A stretch of 64,000 bases of DNA. Source: an uncultured virus (IMG/VR IMGVR_UViG_3300043443_000309) (Duplodnaviria > Heunggongvirae > Uroviricota > Caudoviricetes). Positions 10,026 to 64,000 of this stretch are shown piece by piece. A model generated the notes under the pieces. The model did not search any database. It was not told where the DNA came from and saw only the letters and a list, made by a program, of their open reading frames with translations. Made by a program: the position numbers and the translations under genes. The stretch is taken from the IMG/VR virus record IMGVR_UViG_3300043443_000309. One strand, written 5' to 3'. Each line of letters opens with the position of its first letter. Position 1 is the stretch's first letter.

Positions 10026-10034
10026 ACTATTTAT
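10026..10034 (+). promoter_or_regulatory. Putative late promoter ACTATTTAT
   Basis: Recurrent motif upstream of structural genes; here followed by GAGGAG SD and ATG 10052. Confidence 0.7.
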
Positions 10035-15822: not shown

Positions 15823-15851
15823 TTGACTGATTTACGGCTCTGCGTTATAAT
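15823..15851 (+). promoter_or_regulatory. Sigma70-type promoter TTGACT-17-TATAAT
   Basis: Near-consensus -35/-10 with 17-bp spacer, upstream of the sbcCD-like gene. Confidence 0.85.
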
Positions 15852-15873: not shown

Positions 15874-18800
15874 GTGAGCATTCGTATTGCCCACATTTCG
15901 GATACTCACATCCGAAATTATAAGTATCACTTTGAGTACAAGGCAGCTTTCCAAGATTTGTATTCAAAGCTGCGTGAACAGAAAGTAGATTACATTATCC
16001 ACTGTGGGGACATTGCTCACACAAAGACACAGCTATCTCCTGAGTATTTTGAGTTGGCAAGTGACTTTCTGAGCAATCTTGCTAACATTGCCCCAACATA
16101 CGTTATCCTTGGTAACCACGACGGCAATCTAAAGAACTCAAATCGTCAAGATGCGATTACCCCAATTGTGCAAGCTTTGATGCACTCTAACTTGCATCTT
16201 CTAAAGAACTCTGGCGAAGTAATGGTAAATGAACTACTTACGCTGAATGTTCTTTCTGTTTTTGATGAAGACAAGTGGGTAAAGCCGAGCGATCCATCAA
16301 AGATCAACGTTGCGCTTTATCACGGTGCTATTAGCGGTGTCCAGACTGACATAGGCTGGACTATGCAAGGAGGGGACCATGATCTCAGCATTTTTTCTGA
16401 TCACGATTACGCTTTGCTTGGTGACATTCACAAAACCAACCAAGTTCTAGATACAGAGGGTAGGGTTCGTTACCCAGGATCTACTATCCAACAGAACTTT
16501 GGTGAAACAAATGATAAAGGCTATTTGCTTTGGGACATTCGAAGCAAGGACGACTTTGATTGTACACACATTCAAATCCATAATCCAAGGCCATTTGTCA
16601 CGGTCAATCTTACATCCAAGGGACAGCTACCTAAGAATGTCGTAGTTCCTTCGGGTGCAAGAGTTAGACTAGCTAGCGAATTCAATCTTACCGTTCAACA
16701 AATGAACAGGGCAGTAGAACTAGCAAAGCATAAGTTTAGCCCCGAAAGCGTTACCTTCCTTTCGCGTGCTGATAACAAGCGTGGTCTAGGCTCAAACGCA
16801 ATTACAAACGTGCCAAAAGAGAACCTACGAGACCCAGCAATTCTAGAGAAGTTCATTCGGGATTATCTGAAAGACTACGAATGCACCGAAGAAGTAATTC
16901 AAAAGGTTCTTGAGCTAAACAAGAAGTATTCTGCTATTGTAGAAGAAACAGAAGAGGTTAGTCGTAACATCAATTGGCAAATCAAGTCTCTAGAATGGAA
17001 TAACCTTTTCAACTACGGCGAGAATAACAGAATTTCTTTTGAAGACTTGTCTGGTATTGTTGGTATTTTCGGCAAGAACTTCTCTGGCAAGTCCAGCATC
17101 ATTGATTCACTTTTGTTCACCATCTTCAACACAACTTCGAAGAATGAACGTAAGAACTTCAATGTCATCAATCAACAGAAGAGTTTTGCTTCTTGTGTCG
17201 CGACAATCGCTATCAACACTGACATTTATACAATCGAACGCTCGCTAACAAAGTACAAGAAGAAAGCAAAGTCTGAAGTGCTTGACGAAGCCAAGGCAGA
17301 GCTTGACTTTGTGAAAGAATGTACAGTCACCAATACTAGAGAATCAATGAATGGTGTTTCCCGAGTTGAAACCGACCACAACATTCGTCGTATCTTTGGT
17401 ACATTCGATGACTTCTTGAATACGTCCATGTCTAGCCAGCTTGATGGTCTTTCGTTTGTACGCGAAGGCAGTACAAAGCGCAAAGAGATTATTGCTAAGT
17501 TCTTAGATTTGGAAATCTTCGAAAAGAAGTTTAGACTAGCCAAAGATGATAGTTCCGATCTAAAGGGTGCGCTCCGCCGCTTGGAAGGCCGTAATTTCGA
17601 TGGTGAGATTGAAAATGCTCATGCTGAACTAACACAGAGCGAACAAGAGCTAACAGATTGTCTTAGCAAGTGTCGCACTCTTGAAGTAAAAGTACAAGAA
17701 GTAGAGAATGACATCAAGACGCTAGAAGAACAAATCAACTCCTGTTCAACCGAAGTAATTGATGGAGCAGAGCTTCGCAATCTTATCTCTAGAACCAACA
17801 TGAGCCTTCTAACAACTGAGGGACAAGTCTTGGAAAACGAGAAGTCCCTCGCAGAAAAGAAAACCTTGTTAGAGAAGATTTCAGCATTCATCGCCAACTA
17901 TGACTATCAATCTTTGATTACTCGTAAAGAGAACATCAAGCTCCTAAGAGAAGAACTCTCTGACATTGATAGAGAAGTAAGATTGGCTTCTAGCAAGGCT
18001 AGCCTACTTGAAGGTATCCCATGCGGAACTCAATTCCCAAAATGTAAGTTTATTCGTGATGCATCTGGAGCTACAACGATTATCTCCGAGTCTAAGAGTA
18101 AGATCGAACAACTAAATGATAAGCTTTCCGAATACAAACCAGATAGCATTCAAGCTGATTTGGATAAGTACAACTCGATCATTGCCCGTAGGGAAGAACT
18201 TGTAAAAGAGATCAAAGATCTAGAGTTCTACATTGAGCGTGGTAGTTTCAACCTAACCAAGCTTCAAGATGAACTAAGCTCTCTACGGCAAAAGGAAGAG
18301 GTATACGAGCAAACCAAAGAGCAAATCAAGAACGCTCAGTCTCTAATGGTAAATCTCAATAAGCTAAAGATCTCGTTGAAAGATGCAAAGCGTTCGCATT
18401 CAGAGTGTACTGATAAGCTTGTCCTTCTCCATCGCAAGATTGGATCGGCAGAACAGAAGCTAGAGATGCTAACAACACAGAAAGATGAGCTAGCCAGCCT
18501 TCGTACAGAATTCTCAGCGTATGAACTGTTTATGCGTTGTATGCATTCGAATGGTATTGCGTATGACATCATCAAGAAGCAGCTTCCAGTTGTAAATGAA
18601 GAGATTACCAAGATCCTTTCGAACCTTACAGAATTCAATGTATTTTTCGAAGAGGAAGGAGATAAACTGGACATCATGATCAAGCATGTTGACCAAGACC
18701 CAAGGCCGCTTTCAATGGCCTCTGGTGCCGAAAAGACTATGGCCGCTATGGCTATTCGTCTGGCTCTACTCCAAGTTTCCAACCTTCCAAAGTCAGACAT

Positions 18801-18990
18801 TATGATTCTCGACGAGCCGGGCACTGCACTTGACGAGAACCATCTTCAAACCTTCACACAATTACTCGATCTTTTGAAGACACAATTCAGAACCATTTTG
18901 GTTATTTCCCACCTTGATAGCTTGAAAGATGTAGTCGATACTACGATTGAAATCAGCAATAAAGACGGTTTTGCTTTCGTAAATCAATGA
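15874..18990 (+). CDS. Fused SbcD/Mre11 nuclease and SbcC/Rad50 ATPase (T4 gp47-gp46-like)
   Basis: Phosphoesterase motifs SDTH, GD, GNHD, GDIH; Walker A GKNFSGKSS; coiled coil; signature ASGAEK; Walker B ILDEP; VISH. Confidence 0.92.
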   Translation: MSIRIAHISDTHIRNYKYHFEYKAAFQDLYSKLREQKVDYIIHCGDIAHTKTQLSPEYFELASDFLSNLANIAPTYVILGNHDGNLKNSNRQDAITPIVQALMHSNLHLLKNSGEVMVNELLTLNVLSVFDEDKWVKPSDPSKINVALYHGAISGVQTDIGWTMQGGDHDLSIFSDHDYALLGDIHKTNQVLDTEGRVRYPGSTIQQNFGETNDKGYLLWDIRSKDDFDCTHIQIHNPRPFVTVNLTSKGQLPKNVVVPSGARVRLASEFNLTVQQMNRAVELAKHKFSPESVTFLSRADNKRGLGSNAITNVPKENLRDPAILEKFIRDYLKDYECTEEVIQKVLELNKKYSAIVEETEEVSRNINWQIKSLEWNNLFNYGENNRISFEDLSGIVGIFGKNFSGKSSIIDSLLFTIFNTTSKNERKNFNVINQQKSFASCVATIAINTDIYTIERSLTKYKKKAKSEVLDEAKAELDFVKECTVTNTRESMNGVSRVETDHNIRRIFGTFDDFLNTSMSSQLDGLSFVREGSTKRKEIIAKFLDLEIFEKKFRLAKDDSSDLKGALRRLEGRNFDGEIENAHAELTQSEQELTDCLSKCRTLEVKVQEVENDIKTLEEQINSCSTEVIDGAELRNLISRTNMSLLTTEGQVLENEKSLAEKKTLLEKISAFIANYDYQSLITRKENIKLLREELSDIDREVRLASSKASLLEGIPCGTQFPKCKFIRDASGATTIISESKSKIEQLNDKLSEYKPDSIQADLDKYNSIIARREELVKEIKDLEFYIERGSFNLTKLQDELSSLRQKEEVYEQTKEQIKNAQSLMVNLNKLKISLKDAKRSHSECTDKLVLLHRKIGSAEQKLEMLTTQKDELASLRTEFSAYELFMRCMHSNGIAYDIIKKQLPVVNEEITKILSNLTEFNVFFEEEGDKLDIMIKHVDQDPRPLSMASGAEKTMAAMAIRLALLQVSNLPKSDIMILDEPGTALDENHLQTFTQLLDLLKTQFRTILVISHLDSLKDVVDTTIEISNKDGFAFVNQ

Positions 18991-51408: not shown

Positions 51409-52281
51409 ATGTCTAAAGCGTTACAATACAACCTCGATGAATCAAAAAGAATCGGCTGGAATGCTGGCATCTTAGGGTTGTCAAAAATTGATGAAGATTT
51501 TGTGGAGGCAGTAAAAGACTTCCAGAGACAGTATAACCTAACTGCTGATGGTATGCTAGGTCCAAATACATACCGTAGAATCTTGCTTGAGAAAGACAGA
51601 GCAAATGATGTAAAACCAACAGTTCCAGCATGGAGCGGGAGCCGTATTATCTGCAATGGCCAGGAGATCCCACTAAAATCAGGTAAAGCTGTTACTTGGA
51701 AAGATAAAGGCGGTTTCGTTCTAACAAAAGGCTTTGTGAAGAAGACTAGCAGAAAGCCAAACTTGTTCGTAACACATTGGGATGTCTGCTTATCGGCAGC
51801 CAGTTGTTATAACGTTTTGAAAGATCGAGGTCTGTCAGTTCACTTCTCAATTGATAATGATGGTACAATCTATCAATACCTTGACACAGCTAACATAGCA
51901 TGGCACGCCTCACCAGCCAACGAGGTTTCGATTGGCGTGGAAGTATCCAATGCTTATTACACAAAGCATCAAGATTGGTATGTCAAGAATGGCTTTGGTC
52001 CAAGACCAATAACCAAAGCAGTCAAGGGCCACGGAGGATCTATTGAACCCCACTTAGACTTCTATCCAGCACAATACGAGGCTTTGGCTTCTTTGTGGGA
52101 AGCTGTTCACCGCGCTCATGGCATTCCTCTTGAACTACCTCACCGATTTGACAGCACCATTGATTGGGAAAGCTTTAGTGGTTTCGTAAATCATTTCCAC
52201 ATTACTTCTAGAAAGATTGATTGCTTTGGTATGGATCATTATAAAGTCCTCAACCGTGCAATTCAATTATCGAACCAGTGA
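51409..52281 (+). CDS. Endolysin: peptidoglycan-binding domain plus N-acetylmuramoyl-L-alanine amidase (Amidase_2)
   Basis: AVKDFQRQYNLTADGMLGPNT (PG-binding); VTHW, SVHFSIDNDGTIYQ, AWHA, SIGVE and NHF...KID. Confidence 0.88.
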   Translation: MSKALQYNLDESKRIGWNAGILGLSKIDEDFVEAVKDFQRQYNLTADGMLGPNTYRRILLEKDRANDVKPTVPAWSGSRIICNGQEIPLKSGKAVTWKDKGGFVLTKGFVKKTSRKPNLFVTHWDVCLSAASCYNVLKDRGLSVHFSIDNDGTIYQYLDTANIAWHASPANEVSIGVEVSNAYYTKHQDWYVKNGFGPRPITKAVKGHGGSIEPHLDFYPAQYEALASLWEAVHRAHGIPLELPHRFDSTIDWESFSGFVNHFHITSRKIDCFGMDHYKVLNRAIQLSNQ

Positions 52282-52293
52282 CAAGTTTTTGAC

Positions 52294-52322
52294 TTGACGG
52301 CCCTGCGGTACGATGCTACATT
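52294..52322 (+). promoter_or_regulatory. Sigma70-type promoter TTGACG-17-TACATT with extended TG, embedded in a hairpin
   Basis: -35 at 52294-52299, -10 at 52317-52322. Confidence 0.75.
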
Positions 52323-52339
52323 CATTGTACGAGGGCCGA

Positions 52340-53521
52340 ATGATTTTCCAGACGTTTGATTCCAAGAACGAATGCGCTGCTGTATTTGCTGATAACAGAC
52401 TATCGGGAATTGACAATGTAGATTTCTCTAGCTTCAACCGTACTTGGGGTTGGGCACCCTATTTGCCTTCGGGTATTGACTTCGCCAAGATCTATGTTGG
52501 TGGCAAAGAACTTGATGAAGTTTGTCCTGAAGAATACAAAGAAGAGTACGATAAAGCTAGTTCGAAATTGAAGGCTCTATACCGTTCTTTCCTATTGGCA
52601 AAGATCAACATGAATGAGAATTGCTTCTATGATTTGGTTAGCAAGGGTTTCTTAGAAGACTATGCAAAGGTAAAGAATAAGATTTGCGATTGGATTTTCA
52701 ACAATGTTGAGAAGCCTAGTAATCATGATTACCTTGTTAGACTACAAGAAGTTCTTCATGACATTTCAAATCGTAGGCTGATAATCGACACAGCAGCTAT
52801 GCAACAAGAAAAGCATAGAAAGAAAGTCAGAGACTTTGCTGAAAAGCTTAGAGAATACCCGCGAAAGATTGTGTATAACTCTTTCTCGTCTAAGACCGGT
52901 CGTTTATCTACAACCAAGGATTCGTTTCCTATTCTTCGGTTTGACAAAGACCTTCGACGGTTTATCAAGCCAACAAATGACATGTTCTTGGAAATCGATT
53001 ATAATGCCGCTGATCTGCGATCTTTGTTCTTGATCCAAGGGAAAGACCAGCCAAACATCGACATTCACGATTGGAACATCCAAAATGTGTTCGGTAAGGA
53101 TACAGATAGAGACTTGGCAAAGAAGATGATCTTTGGTTGGTTGTACGATCTAGACAAGAGAGATAATCGACTAGAGAAAGTTTATGGTCGTGATTACTTA
53201 CTAAGGGAGTGTTGGGATGGTGAAGCAGTTGAAAATCCTTTTGGCAGGAGAATCCAGTGTGATAAGGAACATGCCATTTCTTATTTGGTCCAAAGCACAA
53301 CGGCAGATTACGTTGGTAGAAAACTTATTGAGATCTTTGATCTCTTGAAAGGTAAGAAGTCTTATCTTGCTTTCTCAATTCACGATTCGATCATAATCGA
53401 CTTTGATTGGTCTGAACGGAATTTGATTTTGCCAATCCTGAAGCTTGTTCGCAAAGAAGGGTTTGTTGCAACATTGAAAGCAGGAAATGATTTTGAAAAT
53501 CTAAAGGTTATTGAACTATGA
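52340..53521 (+). CDS. Short family A DNA polymerase-like protein
   Basis: TGRLS, motif A EIDYNAADLR, motif B RDLAKKMIFGWLY, FGRR, VQST.AD and motif C IHDS; ATG 52340 follows GAGGG. Confidence 0.85.
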   Translation: MIFQTFDSKNECAAVFADNRLSGIDNVDFSSFNRTWGWAPYLPSGIDFAKIYVGGKELDEVCPEEYKEEYDKASSKLKALYRSFLLAKINMNENCFYDLVSKGFLEDYAKVKNKICDWIFNNVEKPSNHDYLVRLQEVLHDISNRRLIIDTAAMQQEKHRKKVRDFAEKLREYPRKIVYNSFSSKTGRLSTTKDSFPILRFDKDLRRFIKPTNDMFLEIDYNAADLRSLFLIQGKDQPNIDIHDWNIQNVFGKDTDRDLAKKMIFGWLYDLDKRDNRLEKVYGRDYLLRECWDGEAVENPFGRRIQCDKEHAISYLVQSTTADYVGRKLIEIFDLLKGKKSYLAFSIHDSIIIDFDWSERNLILPILKLVRKEGFVATLKAGNDFENLKVIEL

Positions 53522-54412: not shown

Positions 54413-55201
54413 ATGGCTATTGACATTAACAAGATGAAGGCTAAGCTTTCTGCAACTGAGAACAAGGGTGACACTTCTAGCAAGGTATCTACCTTTTGGA
54501 AGCCCGTAGAGGGCGAGCAGGACATTCGCATTGTGTGCCCATCGGATGGTGATCCATTCCGTGATTTCCACTTCCACTACCTTGAAGTTGGCGGCAAGCG
54601 TAAGACCGTCCTATGTCTGAAGAAGAACTTTGGCGAGCAATGCCCAATCTGTGAGTTCGCATCACAAACTTGGCGTGATGGTGTCGCAAACAACGACGAT
54701 GAAGATAAGAAGCTTGCTAAGTCGCTATTCGTGAAGGAGCGTTACTTCTCACCTGTTTTGGTTCGTGGTGAGGAAGACAAGGGTGTCCGTGTTTGGGGTT
54801 ACGGTGGAACCGTTTACAAGAAGCTTCTAAGCCTTGTTCTGAACCCTGACTATGGTGACATTACTGATACTGAGGAAGGAACTGACTTGACAATTTCCTA
54901 CTCCACAAAGACTGGTCGCATGTTCGCAGAGACTGATGTTGCACCTCGCCGTAAGACTTCGACGCTTTGCTCTAAGGCAATCGGTGGAGCAGCACGTTGT
55001 GCCGAGTTGCTTGATAACATGCCAGCGTTTGATACTCTCTTTGAGCGTCTAACCGCACAGCAGATTACCAATCTTCTTGATGAGTTCCTAAGCGATCAGA
55101 ACGGTGCTGGACCAGAAATTCAGAAGTATAATGCAGATACTGGCTCGGAAGACGACCTTTTGAACTCTGTTTTCCGCGAAATCAGTGCCGGTAGTAAGTG
55201 A
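54413..55201 (+). CDS. Single-stranded DNA-binding protein (gp32-like)
   Basis: FWKP, IRIV, HFHY, C...CPIC, YGDITD..EG.D and an acidic C-terminus. Confidence 0.82.
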   Translation: MAIDINKMKAKLSATENKGDTSSKVSTFWKPVEGEQDIRIVCPSDGDPFRDFHFHYLEVGGKRKTVLCLKKNFGEQCPICEFASQTWRDGVANNDDEDKKLAKSLFVKERYFSPVLVRGEEDKGVRVWGYGGTVYKKLLSLVLNPDYGDITDTEEGTDLTISYSTKTGRMFAETDVAPRRKTSTLCSKAIGGAARCAELLDNMPAFDTLFERLTAQQITNLLDEFLSDQNGAGPEIQKYNADTGSEDDLLNSVFREISAGSK

Positions 55202-55258
55202 TAAAAACTACTTATACTCGACCGGAGTGCTTCGGCACTCCGGTTTCGGAGTATGGGT

Positions 55259-55471
55259 ATGAAAGAAGAAGACGAGCGTTTGTATCAGTTTGATCGCGAA
55301 TACACTGTATTGATAGTTTTCATGATGATTTTGCTTTGGTCTGCGCTGCCGTTTTTCATTGCCATGAACAGCAAAGAAGAACCAGACGTAGTACAAGTAT
55401 CTGAAGCTATGAATAAAGTTTATGTTGTTAGCAAAGATCATTCTAGAGCGCACGCATTTACAACAAACTAA
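55259..55471 (+). CDS. Small single-TM membrane protein
   Basis: TM segment VLIVFMMILLWSALPFFIAM; GGAG SD; alternative ATG at 55253. Confidence 0.55.
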   Translation: MKEEDERLYQFDREYTVLIVFMMILLWSALPFFIAMNSKEEPDVVQVSEAMNKVYVVSKDHSRAHAFTTN

Positions 55472-55482
55472 ATGGAGTTTTC

Positions 55483-56613
55483 ATGGCCCGTAAGACAGAA
55501 GTGAAGCCGGGCAAACTATCCATTGCAGAGATGAGAAACCTTGTCAATAAGAAATACGGACAAGAGATTGCTCACGATCTATCCAAAGAAAATCCTACAG
55601 AGGTAACCGATTGGGTACCCACAGGAGCGCGCTGGCTAGATTCAATCATCTGTCGTGGAAAGCTTGCTGGTATTCCCGTTGGAAAGATTACAGAGATTGC
55701 CGGTCTAGAAGGTACTGGTAAATCCTACATGGCTGCTCAGATTGCAGCTAACGCTATGGCCAAAGGAATGGACGTAGTTTATTTCGATTCAGAATCAGCA
55801 GTAGATCCAGAGTTTTTGGAAGCTACTGGTTGTGATCTAGATAAGCTCTTGTACATTCAGGCAACAACAACAGAACTAGTATTGGAAACAATTGAAGAGC
55901 TTCTATCTGCTAATAACGGATCAATGTTCTTTATTTGGGATTCGCTAGCTAACACACCAGCAGCAGCAGACGTTGAAGGTTCATTCGATCCTATGTCGTC
56001 TATGGCTATGAAGCCTAGAATTCTTTCTAGGGCATTCTCAAAGCTAACAATTCCTATTGCTAATACTAAGTCTACCCTTCTAATTCTAAATCAGCTAAAG
56101 ACGAACATTACTTCGAATAGGGCTGAGCTTTTGACCGATCCTTACTTCACTCCCGGTGGTAAGGCACCAGCATACGCTTATTCATTGCGTATTTGGTTGA
56201 CTGGTCGTAAAGCTAAGGATAGCTACATTCTAGATGAACGTGGATACCCTATCGGTTCAGAAGTAAAAGCCAAGATCAAGAAGTCTCGTTTCGGTTCATT
56301 GAACCGCGAATGTACCTTCAAGATTATTTGGGCTGGTGGTCTCGCTAAGGTTCAAGACGAAGAAAGCTGGTTCAATGCAGTCAAGTCGTCTAAGCATCTA
56401 GAGCAAGCTGGTGCTTGGTTCTCGTTGGTCTATGAAGATGGTACTAAAGAGAAGTTCCAAGCAGCTAACTGGAAAGAAAAGCTGGAATCTCAGAAGTTCA
56501 GAGATCGCGTTCTGCAATTGATGGATGAAGAGATTATTGTCAAGTTCGAAACTAGAGAAGGCAATGCTGAAGATTACTTCGACATTGATTCTGAACCAAG
56601 CGAGCTAGACTGA
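55483..56613 (+). CDS. recA: RecA/UvsX recombinase
   Basis: GIPVGKITEIAGLEGTGKS, YFDSE, IWDS, LNQLK, TPGGKA and KKSRF motifs. Confidence 0.93.
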   Translation: MARKTEVKPGKLSIAEMRNLVNKKYGQEIAHDLSKENPTEVTDWVPTGARWLDSIICRGKLAGIPVGKITEIAGLEGTGKSYMAAQIAANAMAKGMDVVYFDSESAVDPEFLEATGCDLDKLLYIQATTTELVLETIEELLSANNGSMFFIWDSLANTPAAADVEGSFDPMSSMAMKPRILSRAFSKLTIPIANTKSTLLILNQLKTNITSNRAELLTDPYFTPGGKAPAYAYSLRIWLTGRKAKDSYILDERGYPIGSEVKAKIKKSRFGSLNRECTFKIIWAGGLAKVQDEESWFNAVKSSKHLEQAGAWFSLVYEDGTKEKFQAANWKEKLESQKFRDRVLQLMDEEIIVKFETREGNAEDYFDIDSEPSELD

Positions 56614-56635
56614 CAATCGCTTGACAGCTTGCTGC

Positions 56636-56664
56636 TCGACTCGTAGCCCCTCATGCGTTATAAT
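56636..56664 (+). promoter_or_regulatory. Sigma70-type promoter TCGACT-17-TATAAT, embedded in a hairpin
   Basis: -35 at 56636-56641, -10 at 56659-56664. Confidence 0.7.
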
Positions 56665-56683
56665 AAAAGCGTATGAGGGGTTC

Positions 56684-57154
56684 ATGAGTTTGACTAAGCG
56701 CCAGCGTAGGTATTTGGAACTGGCTAAGAAGATTGCGACCAGTTCGGATTCGCCCGACTATCGGCATGGTGCCGTGCTTGTCAAGGGTGGTTCTGTTATC
56801 AATACGTCTTGCAACGATTTGCGTTCTGTTTGGTGGGCAAATCGTTTTCGCAATCATAACTGTGGTCATGCCACGCAACACGCCGAGGTCGGTGCTGTTC
56901 TTGGCATTGCTCGCGACGTTACCGATGGGGCTGTTATGTATGTCGCCCGTGTTGGTAAGCGTAATGACTTTCGGCTTTCTAAGCCGTGTCCGATGTGTCT
57001 CCGCGTTATGGAACATGTCGGGATCAAGAAGGTGGTTTACACCGTTGATGATGAACATGTGGCCAGTATCAAGTTGAATGCTGGCTTGACGGATGATGAT
57101 CTTTTCTATCAGACTAGGCAACCGCAAAAGAAGGAGGTAACCAATGGCGACTGA
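56684..57154 (+). CDS. Cytidine/deoxycytidylate deaminase family protein
   Basis: HGAVLVKGG, HAE and SKPCPMC Zn motifs; ATG 56684 follows GAGGGG. Confidence 0.85.
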   Translation: MSLTKRQRRYLELAKKIATSSDSPDYRHGAVLVKGGSVINTSCNDLRSVWWANRFRNHNCGHATQHAEVGAVLGIARDVTDGAVMYVARVGKRNDFRLSKPCPMCLRVMEHVGIKKVVYTVDDEHVASIKLNAGLTDDDLFYQTRQPQKKEVTNGD

Positions 57155-58139
57155 TAATGCTAAGCGAGTTATGATTATTGATGGTTTGAACATGTACCTG
57201 CGAGGCTACATTGTCAATCCATCTATCTCAACCAATGGTAACCCTATTGGTGGAGTTGTTGGTTTTCTTGGGTCACTCAACAAGCTTATGCGCGAGCTAA
57301 AGCCTACCCAAGTCGTTATCTGTTGGGATGGTCCCGGCGGCTCTCAGAAGCGTCGTGAGATTGTCAAGGAGTATAAGGCTGGTCGTAAGCCTATCCGTAC
57401 CAACTACCAAGTGGAAGGTATGAATGAACAAAGCCAAAAGGAAAATCAAGTTTGGCAACATTCCTTGCTGCTTGAAGTTCTGAACGAAATGCCTATTGTT
57501 CAGCTTATGCTTGAGCATGTTGAGGCAGACGATCTTATTTCATACGTCTGCTCTCATCAGAACTATGCTGGTTGGCAGAAGGTTATTGTATCTTCCGATA
57601 AGGACTTCTTGCAACTTCTGAATGAGGAAACAATCTTGTTCCGTCCTATTCAAAAGCAAATTCACACTACCAAGAATGTTATTGAGGAGTTCGGGATTGC
57701 ACCTGAGAACTTTGCTGTTGCTAGGGCTATCTCTGGCGATAAGTCAGACAATCTTCCCGGTATCAGCGGTATCGGGCTTCCTACGGTTGCTAAGCGGTTT
57801 CCTTTCTTGAAAGAGACCAAGAGCTACTTCCTTCCTGACATTTTGCAATACTGTCAAGACAACCAAAAGGCATCTGCTGCCTACAAGAGCATTGCTAGCA
57901 ACTTTCCGGTTGTTGAAAGCAATTACAAGATGATGAACTTGACGCCTCCATCGATTTCCATTCAAGGCAAAGAGAAGGTCAATTATGCTTTGGATAACTT
58001 TGCTTTTGATCTGAACATCACCAACTTGAAGTCGCTCTCGCTGAAGAACGGCTTTGCAGCTTTCGATTGGTCTGACATTACCGTTAGCCTTCGACGGATT
58101 GTGTCAAGCAACAGCAAACAGCTTGACCATGCACAGTGA
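57144..58139 (+). CDS. 5'-3' exonuclease / RNase H (T4 rnh-like flap endonuclease)
   Basis: IIDGLN, WDG, YKAGR, EADD, SSDKDFLQL and GDKSDNLPGI.GIG motifs. Confidence 0.92.
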   Translation: MATDNAKRVMIIDGLNMYLRGYIVNPSISTNGNPIGGVVGFLGSLNKLMRELKPTQVVICWDGPGGSQKRREIVKEYKAGRKPIRTNYQVEGMNEQSQKENQVWQHSLLLEVLNEMPIVQLMLEHVEADDLISYVCSHQNYAGWQKVIVSSDKDFLQLLNEETILFRPIQKQIHTTKNVIEEFGIAPENFAVARAISGDKSDNLPGISGIGLPTVAKRFPFLKETKSYFLPDILQYCQDNQKASAAYKSIASNFPVVESNYKMMNLTPPSISIQGKEKVNYALDNFAFDLNITNLKSLSLKNGFAAFDWSDITVSLRRIVSSNSKQLDHAQ

Positions 58140-58151
58140 TTCGGTTATGAT
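58123..58151 (+). promoter_or_regulatory. Sigma70-type promoter TTGACC-17-TATGAT
   Basis: Near-consensus boxes upstream of the helicase; shares sGTTAT context with the promoters at 15823, 56636 and 62359. Confidence 0.7.
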
Positions 58152-58178
58152 AGAGATCTACAAAGAAGAGGTACACTA

Positions 58179-59600
58179 ATGTTGGAACAGAAGCCGGTAA
58201 ACTTCGCACAGTACGGCAAGTCTTTCCAAGAAGACCTATGTAGCTTGATTCTCGATGATCGGCCTTTCGCTGATCAACTTCTTGAAGTATTTGATCCAAA
58301 TTTCTTGGAACTAAAGTATCTTCGTGTATTTGTCGAGAAGATTGTTGAACACAGGACAAAGTATAAAATTCATCCAAGTCGTAAGACCATGGTGACTATT
58401 ATCAAGTCTGGTCTGAATGACGAGAACGATGCTACGAAGAAGCAAGTTGTTGATTTCGTAGCAAGGGTATTCGCTAGGGAAGAAGTAGAGCAATCAGAGT
58501 TCATCAAGGATACTTCACTTGATTTTTGCAAAAAGCAAAAGCTAAAAGAAGTAATGATCAAGTCTGCGAAGCTAATCAACACAGCTTCATTCGATGAAAT
58601 CACAAAGCTTATCACGGATGCTGTAAAGCTTGGCTCATCTACAGACTTTGGGTATGATTATCTAAAGGATTTCGAACGTCGTTTCGAACTAAAGTCAAGA
58701 GATCCCATTCCCACCACATGGTCAGAGATTGACCAGATTACCGGTGGCGGTATTGGCAAGGGTGAGTTGGGTGTTGTCATCGCCCCTACGGGTGCCGGTA
58801 AATCGATGGTATTGGTGCATTTGGGCGCGCAAGCAGTCAAGCAAGGTAAAACGGTAGTCCACTACACCCTAGAGCTATCAGACACCGTTATCGCGCAAAG
58901 ATACGATAGTTGTATTACACAACTTCCTCTAAGCGAATTGATGGACCACAAAGAAATCATCCGTCAATCAGTCGAGGAGGTTCCCGGCGCACTAGTTATC
59001 AAGGAATACCCCACCAAGACAGCTAGCGTGAACACCCTCCAATCGCACCTTGAAAGGCTGCGAGCAAAGGGTGTCAAAGTTGACATGGTTGTGGTAGACT
59101 ATGGTGACTTGCTAAAGCCTGTCACAAGAGATAAAGAAAAGAGGAATGAGCTAGAATCAATTTACGAGGGACTTAGAGGATTGGCACAGCAGTTCCAATG
59201 CCCTATCTGGACTGCTTCACAGACAAATCGCTCAGGGTTGAACGCTGAAGTTATTACAATGGAGTCAATCTCAGAAGCATTTTCAAAGTGTTTCGTAGCA
59301 GACTTCATCTTCACGGTTTCCCGCACGGTCGAAGATAAGCAAACAAATAGCGGTAGGATCTTTGTCGCCAAGAATCGGTTTGGACCTGATGGAATCGTAT
59401 TCCCTATTGACATGAACACTCGCAACGTTCACATTGGTATGAAGGTTCAAAACACAAATCAAGATCCCTTGTCACTTGGCCCAACAACAAATCTAACAGC
59501 CAAAGATCAAGCTCAGAGACTCAAAGATAAGTATAAGAAGTTTAGACAATCACTAAGAACACAAGGAACGGAGAACACATCAAATGAATCTAGCAACTAG
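58179..59600 (+). CDS. Replicative DNA helicase (DnaB/gp41-like)
   Basis: APTGAGKS, YTLE, IKEYP, VVDYGDL, TASQTNR and KNRFG motifs. Confidence 0.93.
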   Translation: MLEQKPVNFAQYGKSFQEDLCSLILDDRPFADQLLEVFDPNFLELKYLRVFVEKIVEHRTKYKIHPSRKTMVTIIKSGLNDENDATKKQVVDFVARVFAREEVEQSEFIKDTSLDFCKKQKLKEVMIKSAKLINTASFDEITKLITDAVKLGSSTDFGYDYLKDFERRFELKSRDPIPTTWSEIDQITGGGIGKGELGVVIAPTGAGKSMVLVHLGAQAVKQGKTVVHYTLELSDTVIAQRYDSCITQLPLSELMDHKEIIRQSVEEVPGALVIKEYPTKTASVNTLQSHLERLRAKGVKVDMVVVDYGDLLKPVTRDKEKRNELESIYEGLRGLAQQFQCPIWTASQTNRSGLNAEVITMESISEAFSKCFVADFIFTVSRTVEDKQTNSGRIFVAKNRFGPDGIVFPIDMNTRNVHIGMKVQNTNQDPLSLGPTTNLTAKDQAQRLKDKYKKFRQSLRTQGTENTSNESSN

Positions 59601-61440
59601 AATTTTGTCGGACATCACAGTCCACATGAAGTACGCAAGGTATCTTCCTGAAGAATACCGCCGTGAATCTTATGAAGAAATCACGGAACGCAACATGCAA
59701 ATGCACATCAAGAAGTATCCTCATCTTGAACAAGAGATAAAGGATGCTTACAAGTTTGTTATCAATCGTCAGGTATTGCCTTCAATGCGTTCAATGCAAT
59801 TTGGTGGCAAGCCAATCGAGATTGCTCCAAACAGGATCTTCAACTGCGCTTTTATGCCTATTGATGATCTTCGCTCATTCTCAGAGGCAATGTTCTTGCT
59901 TTTGGGCGGAACAGGTGTTGGCTTCTCAGTCCAAAAACACCATGTTGAGAAACTACCTGAGATCCGTCGCCCATCCGGTCGCGAAAAGCGTTTCCTTGTT
60001 GGAGACAGCATCGAAGGTTGGGCAGACGCCGTTCGCGTTCTCCTACAGTCTTACTTCCGAGGTACAAGCCGAATTCGCTTCGACTTCTCAGATGTTCGTC
60101 CAAAGGGCGCTCGTTTGGTTACTTCTGGTGGTAAAGCACCGGGACCACAGCCACTAGTTGAGTGTCTGGTCAAGATTGACGGAATGTTGAATGCAAAGAG
60201 AGACGGAGAAAAGCTAACTCCTATTGAATGCCACGACATTATGTGTCACATTGCTGACGCAGTTCTTGCTGGTGGTATTCGTCGTGCTGCTCTCATCTCA
60301 CTATTCTCTGCCGACGATGACGAAATGATTGCTTGCAAGTCGGGTAATTGGTGGGAGACAAACCCACAACGCGGTCGTGCCAACAACTCTGCCGTTCTTC
60401 TTCGCCACAAGATTGATAAGGAATACTTCTTGGATCTATGGCAACGCATTCGCGAAAGCGGTTCAGGCGAACCCGGCATTTATCTAAACAACGATAAAGA
60501 TTGGGGAACAAATCCTTGCTGTGAAATCGCACTTCGTCCTTACCAGTTCTGCAATCTTACAGAAGTAAATGTAAGCGACGTTGAGACACAAGAGGACTAT
60601 GAAGCAAGAGTTCGTGCTGCTGCCTTTATTGGCACTCTACAAGCGTCTTACACCGACTTCCACTACCTTCGCCCAGTTTGGCAACGCACAACTGAGAAGG
60701 ACGCTCTAATCGGCGTTGGAATGACCGGCATTGCTTCTGGTAAGGTTCTTGATCTTGACATGACAAAAGCAGGCGAAGTTGTGAGAGAAGAAAACGCAAG
60801 AGTAGCAAAACTACTAGGTATCAACCCAGCAGCAAGAACAACCTGCGTTAAGCCTTCTGGAACAACCTCACTTGTCCTTGGAACCTCGTCAGGCATTCAC
60901 GCTTGGCACAACGACACTTACATTCGTCGCATCCGTGTGGGCAAGAATGAAGCAATCTACACCTACCTTGCCGAGAACCACCCAGAACTTATTGAAGACG
61001 AATACTTCCGTCCTCACGACACCGCTGTTATTTCTGTTCCCCAGAAAGCACCAGAGGGGTCAATCGTGCGAACCGAATCCGCTCTTGATCTCCTAGAGAG
61101 AGTAAAGAAGGTAAGTCAAACTTGGATCAAGTCAGGACACAAGAAGGGTCAAAACACCCACAATGTTTCCGCAACCGTTTCAATCAAGAACGAGGAATGG
61201 GAACCAGTTGGCGAGTGGATGTGGGAAAACCGCGCATTCTACAATGGTCTATCTGTTTTGCCTGCGTTTGAGCACACTTACAAGCAAGCACCTTACGAGG
61301 ATTGCGATGATGAAACCTACAACAAACTATTTGAGGCTCTAAAATCAATTGATCTCAACTATGTCCACGAAGTAGATGACAACACCAACCTCACAGATCA
61401 GGCTGCGTGCGCGGGTGGCGGAAGTTGCGACTTGAAGTGA
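59584..61440 (+). CDS. nrdJ: Class II (B12-dependent) ribonucleotide reductase
   Basis: FNCAF, GTGVGFSV, GGIRRAALI, RANNS, GEPG, TNPCCEI, CNL, VKPSGT and C-terminal CAGGGSC. Confidence 0.9.
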   Translation: MNLATRILSDITVHMKYARYLPEEYRRESYEEITERNMQMHIKKYPHLEQEIKDAYKFVINRQVLPSMRSMQFGGKPIEIAPNRIFNCAFMPIDDLRSFSEAMFLLLGGTGVGFSVQKHHVEKLPEIRRPSGREKRFLVGDSIEGWADAVRVLLQSYFRGTSRIRFDFSDVRPKGARLVTSGGKAPGPQPLVECLVKIDGMLNAKRDGEKLTPIECHDIMCHIADAVLAGGIRRAALISLFSADDDEMIACKSGNWWETNPQRGRANNSAVLLRHKIDKEYFLDLWQRIRESGSGEPGIYLNNDKDWGTNPCCEIALRPYQFCNLTEVNVSDVETQEDYEARVRAAAFIGTLQASYTDFHYLRPVWQRTTEKDALIGVGMTGIASGKVLDLDMTKAGEVVREENARVAKLLGINPAARTTCVKPSGTTSLVLGTSSGIHAWHNDTYIRRIRVGKNEAIYTYLAENHPELIEDEYFRPHDTAVISVPQKAPEGSIVRTESALDLLERVKKVSQTWIKSGHKKGQNTHNVSATVSIKNEEWEPVGEWMWENRAFYNGLSVLPAFEHTYKQAPYEDCDDETYNKLFEALKSIDLNYVHEVDDNTNLTDQAACAGGGSCDLK

Positions 61441-61456
61441 GATAGATAGTAAATTT

Positions 61457-61497
61457 GTCCTTTCTGTCAAATAACAGGCAGAAAGGACTATTTATTT
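61457..61497 (+). terminator. Terminator-like hairpin overlapping a late motif
   Basis: 12-bp stem gtcctttctgtc/ggcagaaaggac followed by tatttattt; ACTATTTAT at 61487. Confidence 0.65.
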
Positions 61498-61508
61498 ATG
61501 TTTAGGAG

Positions 61509-61823
61509 AACAATAATGAAAATCACAACCGCACAACTTCGTCAGATTATTAAGGAAGAATTGGAGAAGGTTATGTCCGAGGCTGAAACTGCTTATGATC
61601 GGTTATCTGATAGGATAAGGACTGCGGAAACAACTGTTTCAGCAATCGAATACGACATCGAAAATAGTAATGAACTAACGGATGAGCAAAAAGAAGAGCT
61701 ACTAAAAATGGCAAAAGATAAAGGAGTAGAAATCCGTAAAAAGGTTTCTGTGCCTGCTTTCTTTCCTGTAGTATTTTGAGAACAATAAAGGTCAACAATA
61801 ATGAAAATCACAACCGCACAACT
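61509..61823 (+). repeat. 30-bp exact direct repeat (61509-61538 and 61794-61823) spanning two gene starts
   Basis: aacaataatgaaaatcacaaccgcacaact occurs twice. Confidence 0.92.
61516..61779 (+). CDS. Small protein with MKITTAQLRQIIKEE leader
   Basis: AGGAG SD before ATG 61516; late motif upstream. Confidence 0.65.
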   Translation: MKITTAQLRQIIKEELEKVMSEAETAYDRLSDRIRTAETTVSAIEYDIENSNELTDEQKEELLKMAKDKGVEIRKKVSVPAFFPVVF

Positions 61824-62340
61824 CAAAAAGATTATCTTGGAAGAAGTAGCTGTAGTTCTATCCAAAGGACCACAAGCTTCTTCACTGTTCAAGGATCTTA
61901 TGGGACAATACATCGGTTCTATTCGCGGCGGTCAACTATGGTTCCACGGCGCACACAATACCGCCAAAGGCATTTCGTTCTCTGCCGATCATCCCGGTAT
62001 TCTAGCTGACATCTACACTGCTTTTGAAGAACAATACGACGAAGCAGTTGAAAAGGCAATAGGCAACACCAGCGACGACATGATGGGTTGTCCAATGTGC
62101 AATACCAAGAAAGCTATGGAAGTTATGTCCAACTACGAAAGCCCAGCTTCAATGGATGAAGAGGGTATCATCGACACTGGTTTGCAAATGCTGCAAGACC
62201 ATCACCAGCTTATGACTGATGTGTTCGATCAACTAGAAGAAGCTGGTGAATTGCCACTAGGTGTCAATGACATGCTAGCTGCTCATGCAAACGACATTGA
62301 GACATTTATTTACTTGATGCAACAACGAGCCAAGAGATAG
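61801..62340 (+). CDS. Dps/ferritin-like protein with MKITTAQL leader
   Basis: AHNTAKGISFSADH...ADIY...YDEAVEK aligns with the Dps ferroxidase pattern HWNVKG..F...H..FEE.Y......DEIAER. Confidence 0.72.
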   Translation: MKITTAQLKKIILEEVAVVLSKGPQASSLFKDLMGQYIGSIRGGQLWFHGAHNTAKGISFSADHPGILADIYTAFEEQYDEAVEKAIGNTSDDMMGCPMCNTKKAMEVMSNYESPASMDEEGIIDTGLQMLQDHHQLMTDVFDQLEEAGELPLGVNDMLAAHANDIETFIYLMQQRAKR

Positions 62341-62358
62341 TTTTTTTGCACCCGAGCC

Positions 62359-62387
62359 TTGACGCCCTTTAGCTCTTCGGTTATACT
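62359..62387 (+). promoter_or_regulatory. Sigma70-type promoter TTGACG-17-TATACT, embedded in a hairpin
   Basis: -35 at 62359-62364, -10 at 62382-62387. Confidence 0.82.
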
Positions 62388-62406
62388 ATAAGAGTTGGAG
62401 GGCGTA

Positions 62407-62646
62407 ATGAAGCTCAACTATCTTCTCGAAAACGATAAACAAATGGAAGATTGCCCTGCTTCTGCCACTGGTAAGCAGAAGCATAATTGGGTTGCTACAA
62501 CTCACATCCAAGCAATGCGCGGCAATAACATCTGTGTCCGATTTATTTGCAAGCGTTGCAAGCGTTTGCATGATGAGTTCATGCCAACTGATAAGTACAA
62601 GTTGCATGAGCGAGCTATTGAACTGAACAAATTTATGGAGTATTGA
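62407..62646 (+). CDS. Small hypothetical Zn-binding protein
   Basis: C...H...CKRC; GGAGG SD before ATG 62407. Confidence 0.55.
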   Translation: MKLNYLLENDKQMEDCPASATGKQKHNWVATTHIQAMRGNNICVRFICKRCKRLHDEFMPTDKYKLHERAIELNKFMEY

Positions 62647-62942
62647 TGAGTAACCTAGAACCACAAAACAGAAGGCTGTACGTCCTTCCCGAAGCTTCAC
62701 TTCCCGGTTTGGAAGAACAAGCCCCTTTGATCTTGCTTCCTGAAGATTTCAAGTCCTCAAAGGAAATCATGAATGAATTCACAATCGCAGAAGTGGTAAA
62801 GTCTTCTTTGGACTGCACCTCTGAGTATTTCCCCGGTACTAAGGTTGTGTTTCCAACACACTTGCTTGAAACCGTTAGCATCCGTGGTCAGGACTATGCA
62901 TTCATCCTTGAAAACCACATTATCGCTTCGTGGACTGAATAA
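62646..62942 (+). CDS. GroES-like co-chaperonin
   Basis: LEPQNRRLYV...LILLP...AEVV...GTKVVF...GQDYAFILENHII follows the GroES pattern. Confidence 0.7.
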   Translation: MSNLEPQNRRLYVLPEASLPGLEEQAPLILLPEDFKSSKEIMNEFTIAEVVKSSLDCTSEYFPGTKVVFPTHLLETVSIRGQDYAFILENHIIASWTE

Positions 62943-63160
62943 TGTCTGAAATTGTAAACCATCCTTCACATTACGGTGGAGCCAACAATCAGTACGAGGC
63001 AATCAAGGTTATTGAAGCTTGGGAGCTTGGCTTCCATCTTGGAAATGTTGTCAAATACATTTCACGGGCTGGTAAGAAGCACAATAGAGTGTTAGAAGAT
63101 CTAAAGAAAGCCCGCTGGTATTTGGACCGGCAAATCGAACAGTTGGAAAAAACAAAATGA
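62942..63160 (+). CDS. DUF3310 family protein
   Basis: VNHPSHY...EAI..I...GFHLGNVVKYISRAGKK...EDLKKARWYL. Confidence 0.88.
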   Translation: MSEIVNHPSHYGGANNQYEAIKVIEAWELGFHLGNVVKYISRAGKKHNRVLEDLKKARWYLDRQIEQLEKTK

Positions 63161-63576
63161 AACAAGAACTTGAAAGCAAACTTTACGAGAAATACCCTGA
63201 CATCTTCCGTCAGAAAGACCTTCCTATGTCCCAAACTTGTATGTGTTGGGGGCTTGAATGCGGAGATGGTTGGTATAACCTCATCGATTCGGCCTGCGCT
63301 CTTATTTCACATCAGATCAAATACAACAAGTGCCCACCAGTTGAATACACCCAAGTCAAAGAGAAGTTTGGCGGTCTTCGCATCTATTACACAGGCGGAA
63401 ATGACTTTGTTGATGGCGTGATCTCGACTGTCAGTTATCTGAGCCAACAGACTTGTGAAACCTGTGGCAACCCCGGTAAACAGACAAACGAAGGTTGGAT
63501 TAGAACACTTTGTGAACCATGTAATGAACAGAGAAAACTTGCCCGACCTACAAGGTTTGATAGGAGTGACCCATGA
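63157..63576 (+). CDS. Conserved phage hypothetical protein
   Basis: ECGDGW, QVKEKFGGLRIY and CETCG.PG...GWIRTLC motifs. Confidence 0.7.
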   Translation: MKQELESKLYEKYPDIFRQKDLPMSQTCMCWGLECGDGWYNLIDSACALISHQIKYNKCPPVEYTQVKEKFGGLRIYYTGGNDFVDGVISTVSYLSQQTCETCGNPGKQTNEGWIRTLCEPCNEQRKLARPTRFDRSDP

Positions 63577-63995
63577 AATACGAGGTAGATTTGAACGAGG
63601 TTGACCGCATGGGCAGAGAATGCTCTAAGATGGAATGCTTTGAATGGCTTCCGGGAATGCTCTACATCCATCCAGCCTATCATGACGGCTCTACTGGCTA
63701 CATGCAACGGATTGGCGATGCGGATACTGCAAGGAAGCTCAAGGGTAATTCGTTTATTTTCCCAGTCTTGACAGATCCAGCTACTCTCGGAGCCATTGAA
63801 CATGGTATACTAGCAGAGTCAGGAATGTTCATCCATCCACTCTTCGGTTTCGTAGACGACATGGTTGAATGGCCGGAAGCATTTGAACTTATCGTGCCTT
63901 ATCGGTATCGAGAAGTCAGAACCTATCCTGTGAAAGAAAACAGGATTGAAGCAATACTAGAAGGACTAAGGATTATCAATGAATACGGCGTATAA
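63573..63995 (+). CDS. Hypothetical protein
   Basis: AGGAG SD and ATGA overlap with the upstream gene. Confidence 0.55.
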   Translation: MKYEVDLNEVDRMGRECSKMECFEWLPGMLYIHPAYHDGSTGYMQRIGDADTARKLKGNSFIFPVLTDPATLGAIEHGILAESGMFIHPLFGFVDDMVEWPEAFELIVPYRYREVRTYPVKENRIEAILEGLRIINEYGV

Positions 63996-64000
63996 TAAAT

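Follow-up and report, generated by a model that had tools for sequence, protein, structure and literature searches.

The hairpin at 62359–62409 and its predicted promoter

The window analysed here is a stretch of 64,000 nucleotides (nt) from an uncultured T4-like lake phage (IMG/VR IMGVR_UViG_3300043443_000309; Caudoviricetes), and at 62359–62409 on its + strand a hairpin coincides with a sequence of the σ70 promoter type. The element is immediately 5' of a gene of 79 amino acids (aa) with conserved Cys and His residues (62407–62646, +), recognised as an open reading frame (ORF) and from its relatives. This gene heads an operon, in which it is followed by a 98 aa gene, a DUF3310 gene, and others. 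On the 5' side there is a unit of two coding sequences, an 87 aa ORF (61516–61779, +) and a 179 aa gene (61801–62340, +), the latter Dps-like by eye and with a weak PHROG match to 'DNA binding protein'.

A preliminary description of this DNA had reported an uninterrupted hairpin of 13 Watson-Crick and 3 G-U pairs, holding TATACT in its loop and GGAGG in its stem, and this is borne out base for base. ACGCCCTTTAGCTCTT (62362–62377) pairs with AAGAGTTGGAGGGCGT (62390–62405) over 16 uninterrupted bp. The −35 hexamer, TTGACG, is at 62359–62364 (consensus scan and conservation) and its last three bases open the 5' arm; this arm, which is the strand opposite the Shine-Dalgarno (SD) sequence, lies within the −35 box and the promoter spacer (pairing, RNAfold, and stem scan). 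The 12 nt loop (62378–62389) contains the −10 hexamer, TATACT, at 62382–62387 (pairing, RNAfold, and consensus scan). The 3' arm (pairing and RNAfold) contains the SD sequence GGAGG at 62397–62401, which ends 5 nt before the ATG at 62407–62409 and has a pairing probability of 1.00.

When 62340–62430 is folded with RNAfold, the hairpin is both the minimum free energy (MFE) and the centroid structure, at −30.6 kcal/mol, where dinucleotide shuffles of the same region average −19.39 kcal/mol (sd 3.2; z = −3.50) and 1 of 200 is equally stable. In a scan for uninterrupted stems, with G-U pairs allowed and loops of 3–20 nt, it is the longest + strand stem of the window. A repeat search with exact seeds misses it, since the G-U pairs interrupt the seeds, and the scan that permits G-U recovers it. 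The window has one stem of at least 16 pairs, against a mean of 0.1 per dinucleotide-shuffled window, such stems being present in 4 of 40 shuffles. Stem length by itself is thus just modestly beyond chance, and the case therefore rests on the position of the hairpin on a promoter and SD sequence, on conservation in relatives, and on recurrence within the window.

The promoter sequence, TTGACG-17-TATACT, matches the σ70 consensus at 10 of 12 positions in the consensus scan, and the stretch upstream of it is AT-rich. Transcription from it is predicted to start at 62392–62396, 5–9 nt past the −10 box and within the 3' arm, giving an RNA with a leader of about 11–15 nt and no 5' arm. Because the 5' arm is wholly upstream of the −10 box, any RNA begun at the embedded promoter would lack it.

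Conservation and co-variation in relatives

Relatives were found by searches with the upstream 179 aa protein, with the 79 aa protein, and with an alignment of the 79 aa protein. The start of the 79 aa gene is present at 33 loci in IMG/VR and metagenome contigs, and there are 19 distinct upstream strings when that of the window is included. For the promoter comparison one locus was taken for each distinct string, giving 17 loci and the window, and TTGAC[GT]-17-TAnnnT is kept in all 18, with a spacer of exactly 17 nt. The fold comparison used 16 distinct sequences from phage and lake metagenome contigs, each beginning 8 nt 5' of the −35 box and ending at the ATG. In the alignment of these, the first five bases of the −35 box (TTGAC) are invariant, as are the opening TA and the closing T of the −10 box (its positions 1, 2, and 6), and the spacer varies freely, which is the pattern of a promoter footprint.

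The 16 sequences form five groups, A (which contains the window), B, C, D, and E, in which identity of the 79 aa protein to that of the window runs from 92% down to 45%. The SD sequence is paired in every one of the 16 variants, with a mean pairing probability of 0.78–1.00 over positions −13 to −5. MFE values are between −12.9 and −31.1 kcal/mol (z −1.15 to −6.84), and none of 300 shuffles is as stable in 11 of the variants, the exceptions being L011 (2 shuffles), L012 (40), L026 (19), L037 (1), and L040 (1).

Helices in the relatives are 15–17 bp long and are not built in the same way. Groups A and C have a common outer pairing, ACGCCC(U)/(A)GGGCGU, with different inner halves and a bulge in C. 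The register of group B is different, the spacer sequence CCCCCAAC or UCUCCAAC pairing with GUUGGAGG. In groups D and E a CCCCUUG/CAAGGGG pairing overlaps the −35 box and is accompanied by a 10 bp inner helix. A single consensus helix for groups A, B, and C in the register of the window was tried and rejected, as 71.5% of its cells are paired against 68.0% in shuffles. Tests that are independent of register were used for this reason.

In the first such test, arms were paired with their own partners and with foreign arms. The cognate duplex is at −26.6 kcal/mol against about −15.5 for foreign arms in A, −28.4 against about −15 in C, −25.4 against about −14 in D, and −24.7 against about −14.6 in E, so that own arms pair about 10 kcal/mol better than foreign ones in four of the five groups. 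In the second, the inner helix of D and E has 91.4% of its cells paired, and in 3 of its 10 pairs both partners have changed (AU to GC, UA, and UA); none of 500 shuffles matches either the paired percentage or the covariation score, and registers slid from this one fall to 32–70%. Cognate duplex energy and inner-helix covariation both support, at the level of sequence comparison, co-evolution of the arms. In L042, two G-U pairs have become C-G and A-U through one-sided changes only.

Further elements of the same build in the window

The arrangement recurs 5' of two replication genes, at 52294 and 56636, which the preliminary description had not noticed. The element of the dCMP deaminase gene (56636–56686, +), found by the consensus and stem scans, has TCGACT (56636–41), a 17 nt spacer, and TATAAT (56659–64), overlaid by a 15 bp stem (56645–56659 with 56668–56682) that has the SD sequence GAGGGG (56675–80) in its 3' arm, ahead of the ATG at 56684. 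The element of the DNA polymerase gene (52294–52342, +), found by a scan of opening costs, has TTGACG (52294–99), a 17 nt spacer, and TACATT (52317–22); here 52298–52315 pairs with 52323–52338 over 16 pairs with two 1 nt bulges, the SD sequence is GAGGG (52331–35), and the ATG is at 52340. The polymerase most likely starts at this ATG, with its SD sequence at 52331–35, rather than at the first in-frame ATG, 52313, which falls within the promoter spacer, 5' of the −10 box. In practice this would correct the start of the DNA polymerase gene from 52313 to 52340. In all three elements the spacer is 17 nt and the distance from the −10 box to the start codon is 18–20 nt, and they are not sequence repeats of one another, since 16–31 of 51 positions are identical.

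Among 62 gene starts, the three with the most stable upstream folds are 55253, 56684, and 62407. The cost of opening the region from the SD sequence to the AUG in a long RNA is 23.9 kcal/mol at 62407, 29.3 at 56684, and 18.5 at 52340, and the other 59 gene starts have a mean of 5.7 kcal/mol (sd 3.5). In RNA started at the predicted promoters the cost is 1.8–7.8 kcal/mol over the three elements for any start within ±2 nt, with 6.4–7.8 kcal/mol at 62407, where one estimate is 6.7. The window has 62 promoter-like sites on the + strand, of which 8 are within 60 nt upstream of a gene start; the arm-arm duplexes of three of these are at −24.0, −25.2, and −26.6 kcal/mol and those of the other five at −3.2 to −12.5. 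In a scan of the whole window with the geometry held fixed, the three elements are 1st, 4th, and 9th among clustered hits, where the 0.1 percentile is −21.8.

The two additional elements also have relatives. That of the dCMP deaminase gene is present at 22 loci as 12 distinct strings, all of which fold with the SD sequence in the stem and with altered stems, for example CUAAAGCCCUCCUGCGC/GCGUAAGAGGGUUUUAG in L053 and GGGACGCC.../...GGCGUCCC in L059. For the polymerase element there are 14 loci, 13 of which were examined (L071 being without the gene start) and gave 9 distinct strings. The hairpin is kept with altered stems in 6 of the 9; in L068–L070 the fold is weaker and the −10 box pairs with the SD/GUG region, and L076 and L077 (40% identity) have neither promoter nor hairpin. 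In G001, a 128 kb relative, a search for TTGAC-N18-TAnnnT on the gene strand gives counterparts at the polymerase site (duplex −24.2) and, weakly, at the site of the 79 aa gene (−13.1), with one further match at a duplex of −15.5, and the design is thus locus-specific, not genome-wide.

In 15 of its 16 variants, the 62359 element folds more stably as sense RNA than as the reverse complement, by a mean of 5.38 kcal/mol. The same is true of all 10 variants of the dCMP deaminase element and all 6 of the polymerase element, making 31 of 32 over the three families, with an average of about 5 kcal/mol. Since a G-U pair of the sense strand is an A-C mismatch on the other, this bias points to selection on the transcribed RNA, not on a DNA cruciform or an antisense RNA.

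A further hairpin is found at 55207–55260, where 22 pairs with a 3 nt bulge and a UUCG loop have the late-type motif ACTACTTAT in the 5' arm, and GGAG and the A of the ATG at 55253 in the 3' arm; in the relatives L053–L058, ACTATTTATCC pairs with GGGGTGAATAG. It was rejected as a fourth gated element, as opening of the SD sequence still costs 12.9–19.4 kcal/mol in RNA begun 5–9 nt after the motif. It may act as a gate, may terminate transcription of the SSB gene, or may do both.

Extra copies of TTGAC(A) are also seen 5–15 nt upstream of the −35 boxes, as TTGACA at 56621–56626, TTGACTTGACG at 52289–52293, and three copies at 1431–1460 of L059. They are kept in relatives, and may represent a tandem −35 box or the binding site of a factor.

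Read-through context and a late-type motif

The ribonucleotide reductase unit is closed at 61457–61488 (+) by a canonical terminator, a 12 bp stem with a T-rich tail, identified by the terminator and stem scans. A candidate late-type promoter motif, ACTATTTAT, is at 61487–61495 (+) and heads the unit of the 87 aa and 179 aa coding sequences. That no terminator separates this unit from the hairpin, as the preliminary description had it, stands: no terminator-like + strand site is found between 61516 and 62359 in a scan of 56000–64000, which lists 61457–61488 and 62706–62723 among others. The label of late-type given to the upstream genes also holds, in that ACTATTTAT at 61487 belongs to a family of + strand-only sites found mostly before structural genes.

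This family, ACTAYTTAY, has 19 sites in the window, every one of them on the + strand, where 2.26 would be expected over the two strands together. A motif search places them, for example, at 10026, 27718, 31722, 34742, 38042, 40999, 42711, 55207, and 61487 (all +). Fourteen of the 19 are 22–82 nt upstream of an ORF start, including those of the protease, sheath, and tube genes, and they are often directly after a terminator. From its strand bias and position, ACTAYTTAY is a candidate for a phage-specific late-type promoter, and it offers a candidate late-promoter motif for annotating such phages. All 10 loci examined in relatives have exactly one ACTATTTAT 5' of the Dps-like gene, with the masked promoter 590–980 nt further on. 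The T4 late promoter sequence, TATAAATA, has no + strand match in the window; its 2 matches are both on the − strand, which is no excess over the 2.56 expected, and it was rejected as a promoter here.

The other two elements have similar surroundings. The element at 52294 follows the endolysin gene, that at 56636 comes after a 72 aa ORF and the UvsX-like gene, a unit with the motif ACTACTTAT at its head (55207), and that at 62359 follows the unit headed by the motif at 61487. Each of the three gated promoters thus comes after a unit that is probably late and has no canonical terminator. A strong promoter at 58123, 5' of the DnaB-like helicase gene, is unmasked and is inside an early-type operon.

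The stems at 62362, 56645, and 52298 begin 21, 31, and 16 nt, respectively, past the ends of the upstream stop codons. A ribosome protects about 15 nt 3' of the P site. From these distances of 16–31 nt and the extent of protection, we infer that the stems are beyond the reach of terminating ribosomes.

Two lake-water runs labelled as metatranscriptomic (5% of sampled words) each gave, when mapped to 61400–62900, one contig of 208 nt at 61800–62007, inside the upstream gene. Neither run covered the hairpin or yielded an RNA end, and they count neither for nor against the element.

Proposed mechanism and alternatives

The site at 62359 is taken to be a composite of promoter and translational gate, a reading to which a rough probability of 0.6 is given, in which read-through RNA would mask the SD sequence and promoter-started RNA would be translated. 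RNA of the 61487 unit, with no terminator on its way, would carry both arms; it would fold once the 3' arm emerges, hiding the SD sequence, and the downstream operon would remain untranslated from this long RNA. RNA from the embedded promoter would begin inside the 3' arm, would be unable to build the hairpin, and would be translated, and the operon would thus be expressed only when its own promoter fires. Accordingly, translation of the 79 aa gene is probably restricted to RNA begun at its own promoter. Such a block of translation on late read-through RNA had been put forward in the preliminary description, and, with its relief on promoter-initiated RNA, it is the favoured reading, with computational and comparative support from a promoter kept in 18 of 18 sequences, an SD sequence paired in 16 of 16, and arms that co-vary.

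Several observations weigh against this. The promoter, the start site, and the read-through RNA are predictions; promoter activity, the translational block, and the temporal classes are likewise derived from sequence. Promoter-like matches in 56000–64000 number 11, against 12.0 expected from shuffles, and the promoter call therefore depends on conservation. The exact 16 bp register of the window is not common to the relatives. The hairpin of group B is the weakest, with energies between −12.9 and −15.7 kcal/mol and z between −1.15 and −2.90, and its cognate advantage is small, at −15.0 against −11.9 and −13.1 kcal/mol. Only about five independent lineages are represented; a compensatory set could in each case reflect one event, and relatedness is not accounted for in the shuffle control, so that the shuffle statistics overstate independence. 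In L006, of group D, the upstream stop is just about 5–8 nt before the stem, where terminating ribosomes might open it. The promoter at 15823, 5' of the SbcCD-like gene, is an exception, as it follows a unit with the late motif (14666) and is yet unmasked (duplex −6.7). The stems of groups D and E are followed by UUUAUUAU or UUUUAUUAU, which is more terminator-like.

Alternatively, the stem-loop could be a terminator or attenuator like those of the promoter-early stem-loop (PeSL) cassettes of other T4-type phages, stopping or thinning upstream transcription and perhaps leaving a protective 3' hairpin, with the promoter restarting transcription and the overlap with the SD sequence being secondary. 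The T-run upstream of the −35 box in the window and the U-rich stretch after the stem in D and E fit such a role. The PeSL cassettes of RB49/phi1, in the part of the source consulted, bring together a σ70-like promoter preceded by AT-rich sequence, a stem-loop, and an SD sequence, and one such stem-loop reduced the expression of lacZ to about the same extent as rrnB T1 (PMC2839356). Those portions of the literature place the PeSL stems across the −10 box or in the interval from −35 to −10, and do not describe them as extending to the SD sequence. In the window no U-tract is found directly after the stem, which is followed by AAUGAAGCUC; the hairpin is not among the sites listed by the terminator scan, which looks for a GC-rich stem with a direct U-run; and the evident canonical terminators of the window all have T-runs, which none of the three promoter hairpins (52294, 56636, and 62359) has. 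It is, moreover, the pairing of the SD sequence that is conserved across registers, not the geometry of a stem with U residues. An attenuator in place of a gate is therefore considered unlikely, and partial termination may coexist with masking of the SD sequence.

The preliminary description had also offered an RNase III-type processing stem, by which cleavage of the long RNA would separate the messages and inactivate or activate the downstream SD sequence. Intergenic sites for RNase III are known from phage T7. The helix here lies between genes and has 16 bp without interruption, relatives keep 15–17 bp, and the neighbouring hairpin at 55207 has 22 pairs. Substrates of RNase III typically have roughly two helical turns, and 16 bp is shorter than this. 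Register, bulges, and length drift between lineages while the pairing of the SD sequence stays, which fits simple occlusion better than a geometry recognised by a protein. There is also no match to an Rfam family in 55000–64000 other than a chance-level miRNA model at 61447–61497 (E = 0.78). The 15–17 bp helices and the drifting geometry count mildly against an RNase III stem, and this explanation is still less probable than attenuation.

That the repeat acts in DNA, as a cruciform or single-stranded hairpin modulating the promoter, or is a chance or neutral by-product, could be argued from its span over the promoter and from the 16 bp stems in 4 of 40 shuffled windows, and is very improbable given that the 3 G-U pairs are A-C mismatches on the other strand, that in 31 of 32 variants the sense strand is the more stably folded one, that loops are of 8–13 nt, and that the fold is kept with changed stems in five groups and at three loci.

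A wider form of the translational-gate reading can be suggested tentatively for the lineage as a whole, and is a little less likely than not to be correct. In this far-T4 lineage the promoter of origin would license translation, and transcription units would generally be insulated in this way: a host-type early promoter directly after a late unit on a one-strand genome would be wrapped in an SD-masking hairpin, which would stop late re-expression of early replication genes. Selection would be purely on occlusion of the SD sequence, and the helix register would for that reason slide between lineages. If true, one-strand phages could hold temporal classes apart cheaply and without a protein, despite pervasive read-through, with the choice of start site setting translatability.

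Comparison with known systems

In T4, the genes e, soc, 49, and I-TevI have a late promoter in the DNA that encodes the 5' strand of an inhibitory helix, according to the sections consulted of the review of Uzan & Miller 2010 (PMC3014915), which also give ribosome-binding site-masking hairpins for I-TevII/III and Aeh1 mobE, and state that the structure of gene e lowers lysozyme synthesis about 100-fold. As described there, the hairpin holds the SD sequence and/or the AUG, transcripts of the nested promoter, which lack the 5' strand, are translated, and those started upstream are silent. At 62359 the SD sequence is similarly within the hairpin and the predicted promoter is so placed that its transcripts would be without the 5' strand. 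The nested promoter of the window differs in being of the host σ70 type, not of the late TATAAATA type, which is gp55-dependent, and the temporal logic would be reversed, with early-type genes silenced on late read-through RNA. The window would thus have the known mechanism of T4 late genes in a variant form, with a host-type promoter and in a distant uncultured lineage. If so, a mechanism of a handful of T4 late genes extends to host-type promoters and to this lineage.

PeSL cassettes are known from RB49/phi1, PST, and nt-1 (PMC2839356, PMC4122927). In the available parts of these two papers they resemble the elements here in having a strong σ70-like promoter, an AT-rich upstream stretch, and a stem-loop over the promoter, then an SD sequence and a start codon, in intergenic regions of T4-type phages. 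The same parts read PeSL stems as terminators and do not describe masking of the SD sequence, and present PeSLs as repeated, conserved cassettes of about 100 bp that flank ORFans in hyperplastic regions. The window, by contrast, has three elements with 16–31 of 51 positions identical, before the genes for DNA polymerase and dCMP deaminase and before a conserved operon of small genes. If the gate reading is true, translation rather than termination may be the target of some 'promoter plus stem-loop' cassettes that are annotated as terminators.

The 'fold-back inhibition' of IS10 and IS50, reportedly the subject of work by Davis, Simons & Kleckner in 1985 (Cell 43:379), is said to protect these elements from outside transcription. 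In these, sequence upstream of their own σ70 start reportedly pairs with the ribosome-binding site, and only promoter-started RNA is translated. There a transposon is defended against promoters outside it, which differs from temporal control in a phage as proposed for the window, and there is no sequence relationship. Sequestration of the SD sequence is also described for IS200, in the part seen of the source (PMC4513863). A literature search of incomplete coverage brought up the T4 late-gene hairpins, the PeSLs, and the IS examples, and no description of σ70-type early promoters inside SD-masking hairpins in phages.

Gene content of the window

The noteworthy ORFs are all on the + strand, and PHROG and Pfam searches of the window proteins give the gene content of a myovirus. 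The structural and lysis module has a gp17-like terminase (20975), portal (22566), prohead protease (27750), major head protein (32943), sheath (38079), tube (41028), and baseplate parts, and its last gene is the endolysin (51409–52281). The replication module has a family-A DNA polymerase (ATG 52340), and the same searches identify SSB (54413), a UvsX-like recombinase (55483), dCMP deaminase (ATG 56684), a 5'-3' exonuclease (57144), a DnaB-like helicase (58179), and a class II ribonucleotide reductase (59584–61440). By terminase, the nearest cultured relatives are Flavobacterium phage vB_FspM_immuto (43.2% identity) and Microcystis phage Mel-JY01 (42.5%), and megablast against 50,697 phage records gives no near match to the window. 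Judged by a terminase 43% identical to that of the nearest cultured phage, the phage is only distantly T4-like, of a far-T4 lineage.

The genes of the operon 3' of the hairpin had been named at first as Zn-protein, GroES, and DUF3310. Pfam confirms DUF3310, while the other two names have no Pfam or PHROG support, with Pfam searched to E 5. The order of the small genes behind the gated promoter varies: in L006 (2698–3651) a 133 aa gene comes before DUF3310, and in the window (62646–63576) DUF3310 comes before a 139 aa gene. In terms of sequence, this difference shows apparent local shuffling behind a conserved promoter-hairpin.

Both ORFs of the upstream unit (61516–61779 and 61801–62340) start with MKITTAQL(R/K)(Q/K)II, and the same N-terminus heads the Dps-like gene in L006 and L015. 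Elsewhere in the window, one ORF of 1038 aa (15874–18990) combines an SbcD-like N-terminal match with an SbcC-like C-terminal match. It sits behind the strongest σ70-like promoter of the window, TTGACT-17-TATAAT at 15823, which has no masking hairpin.

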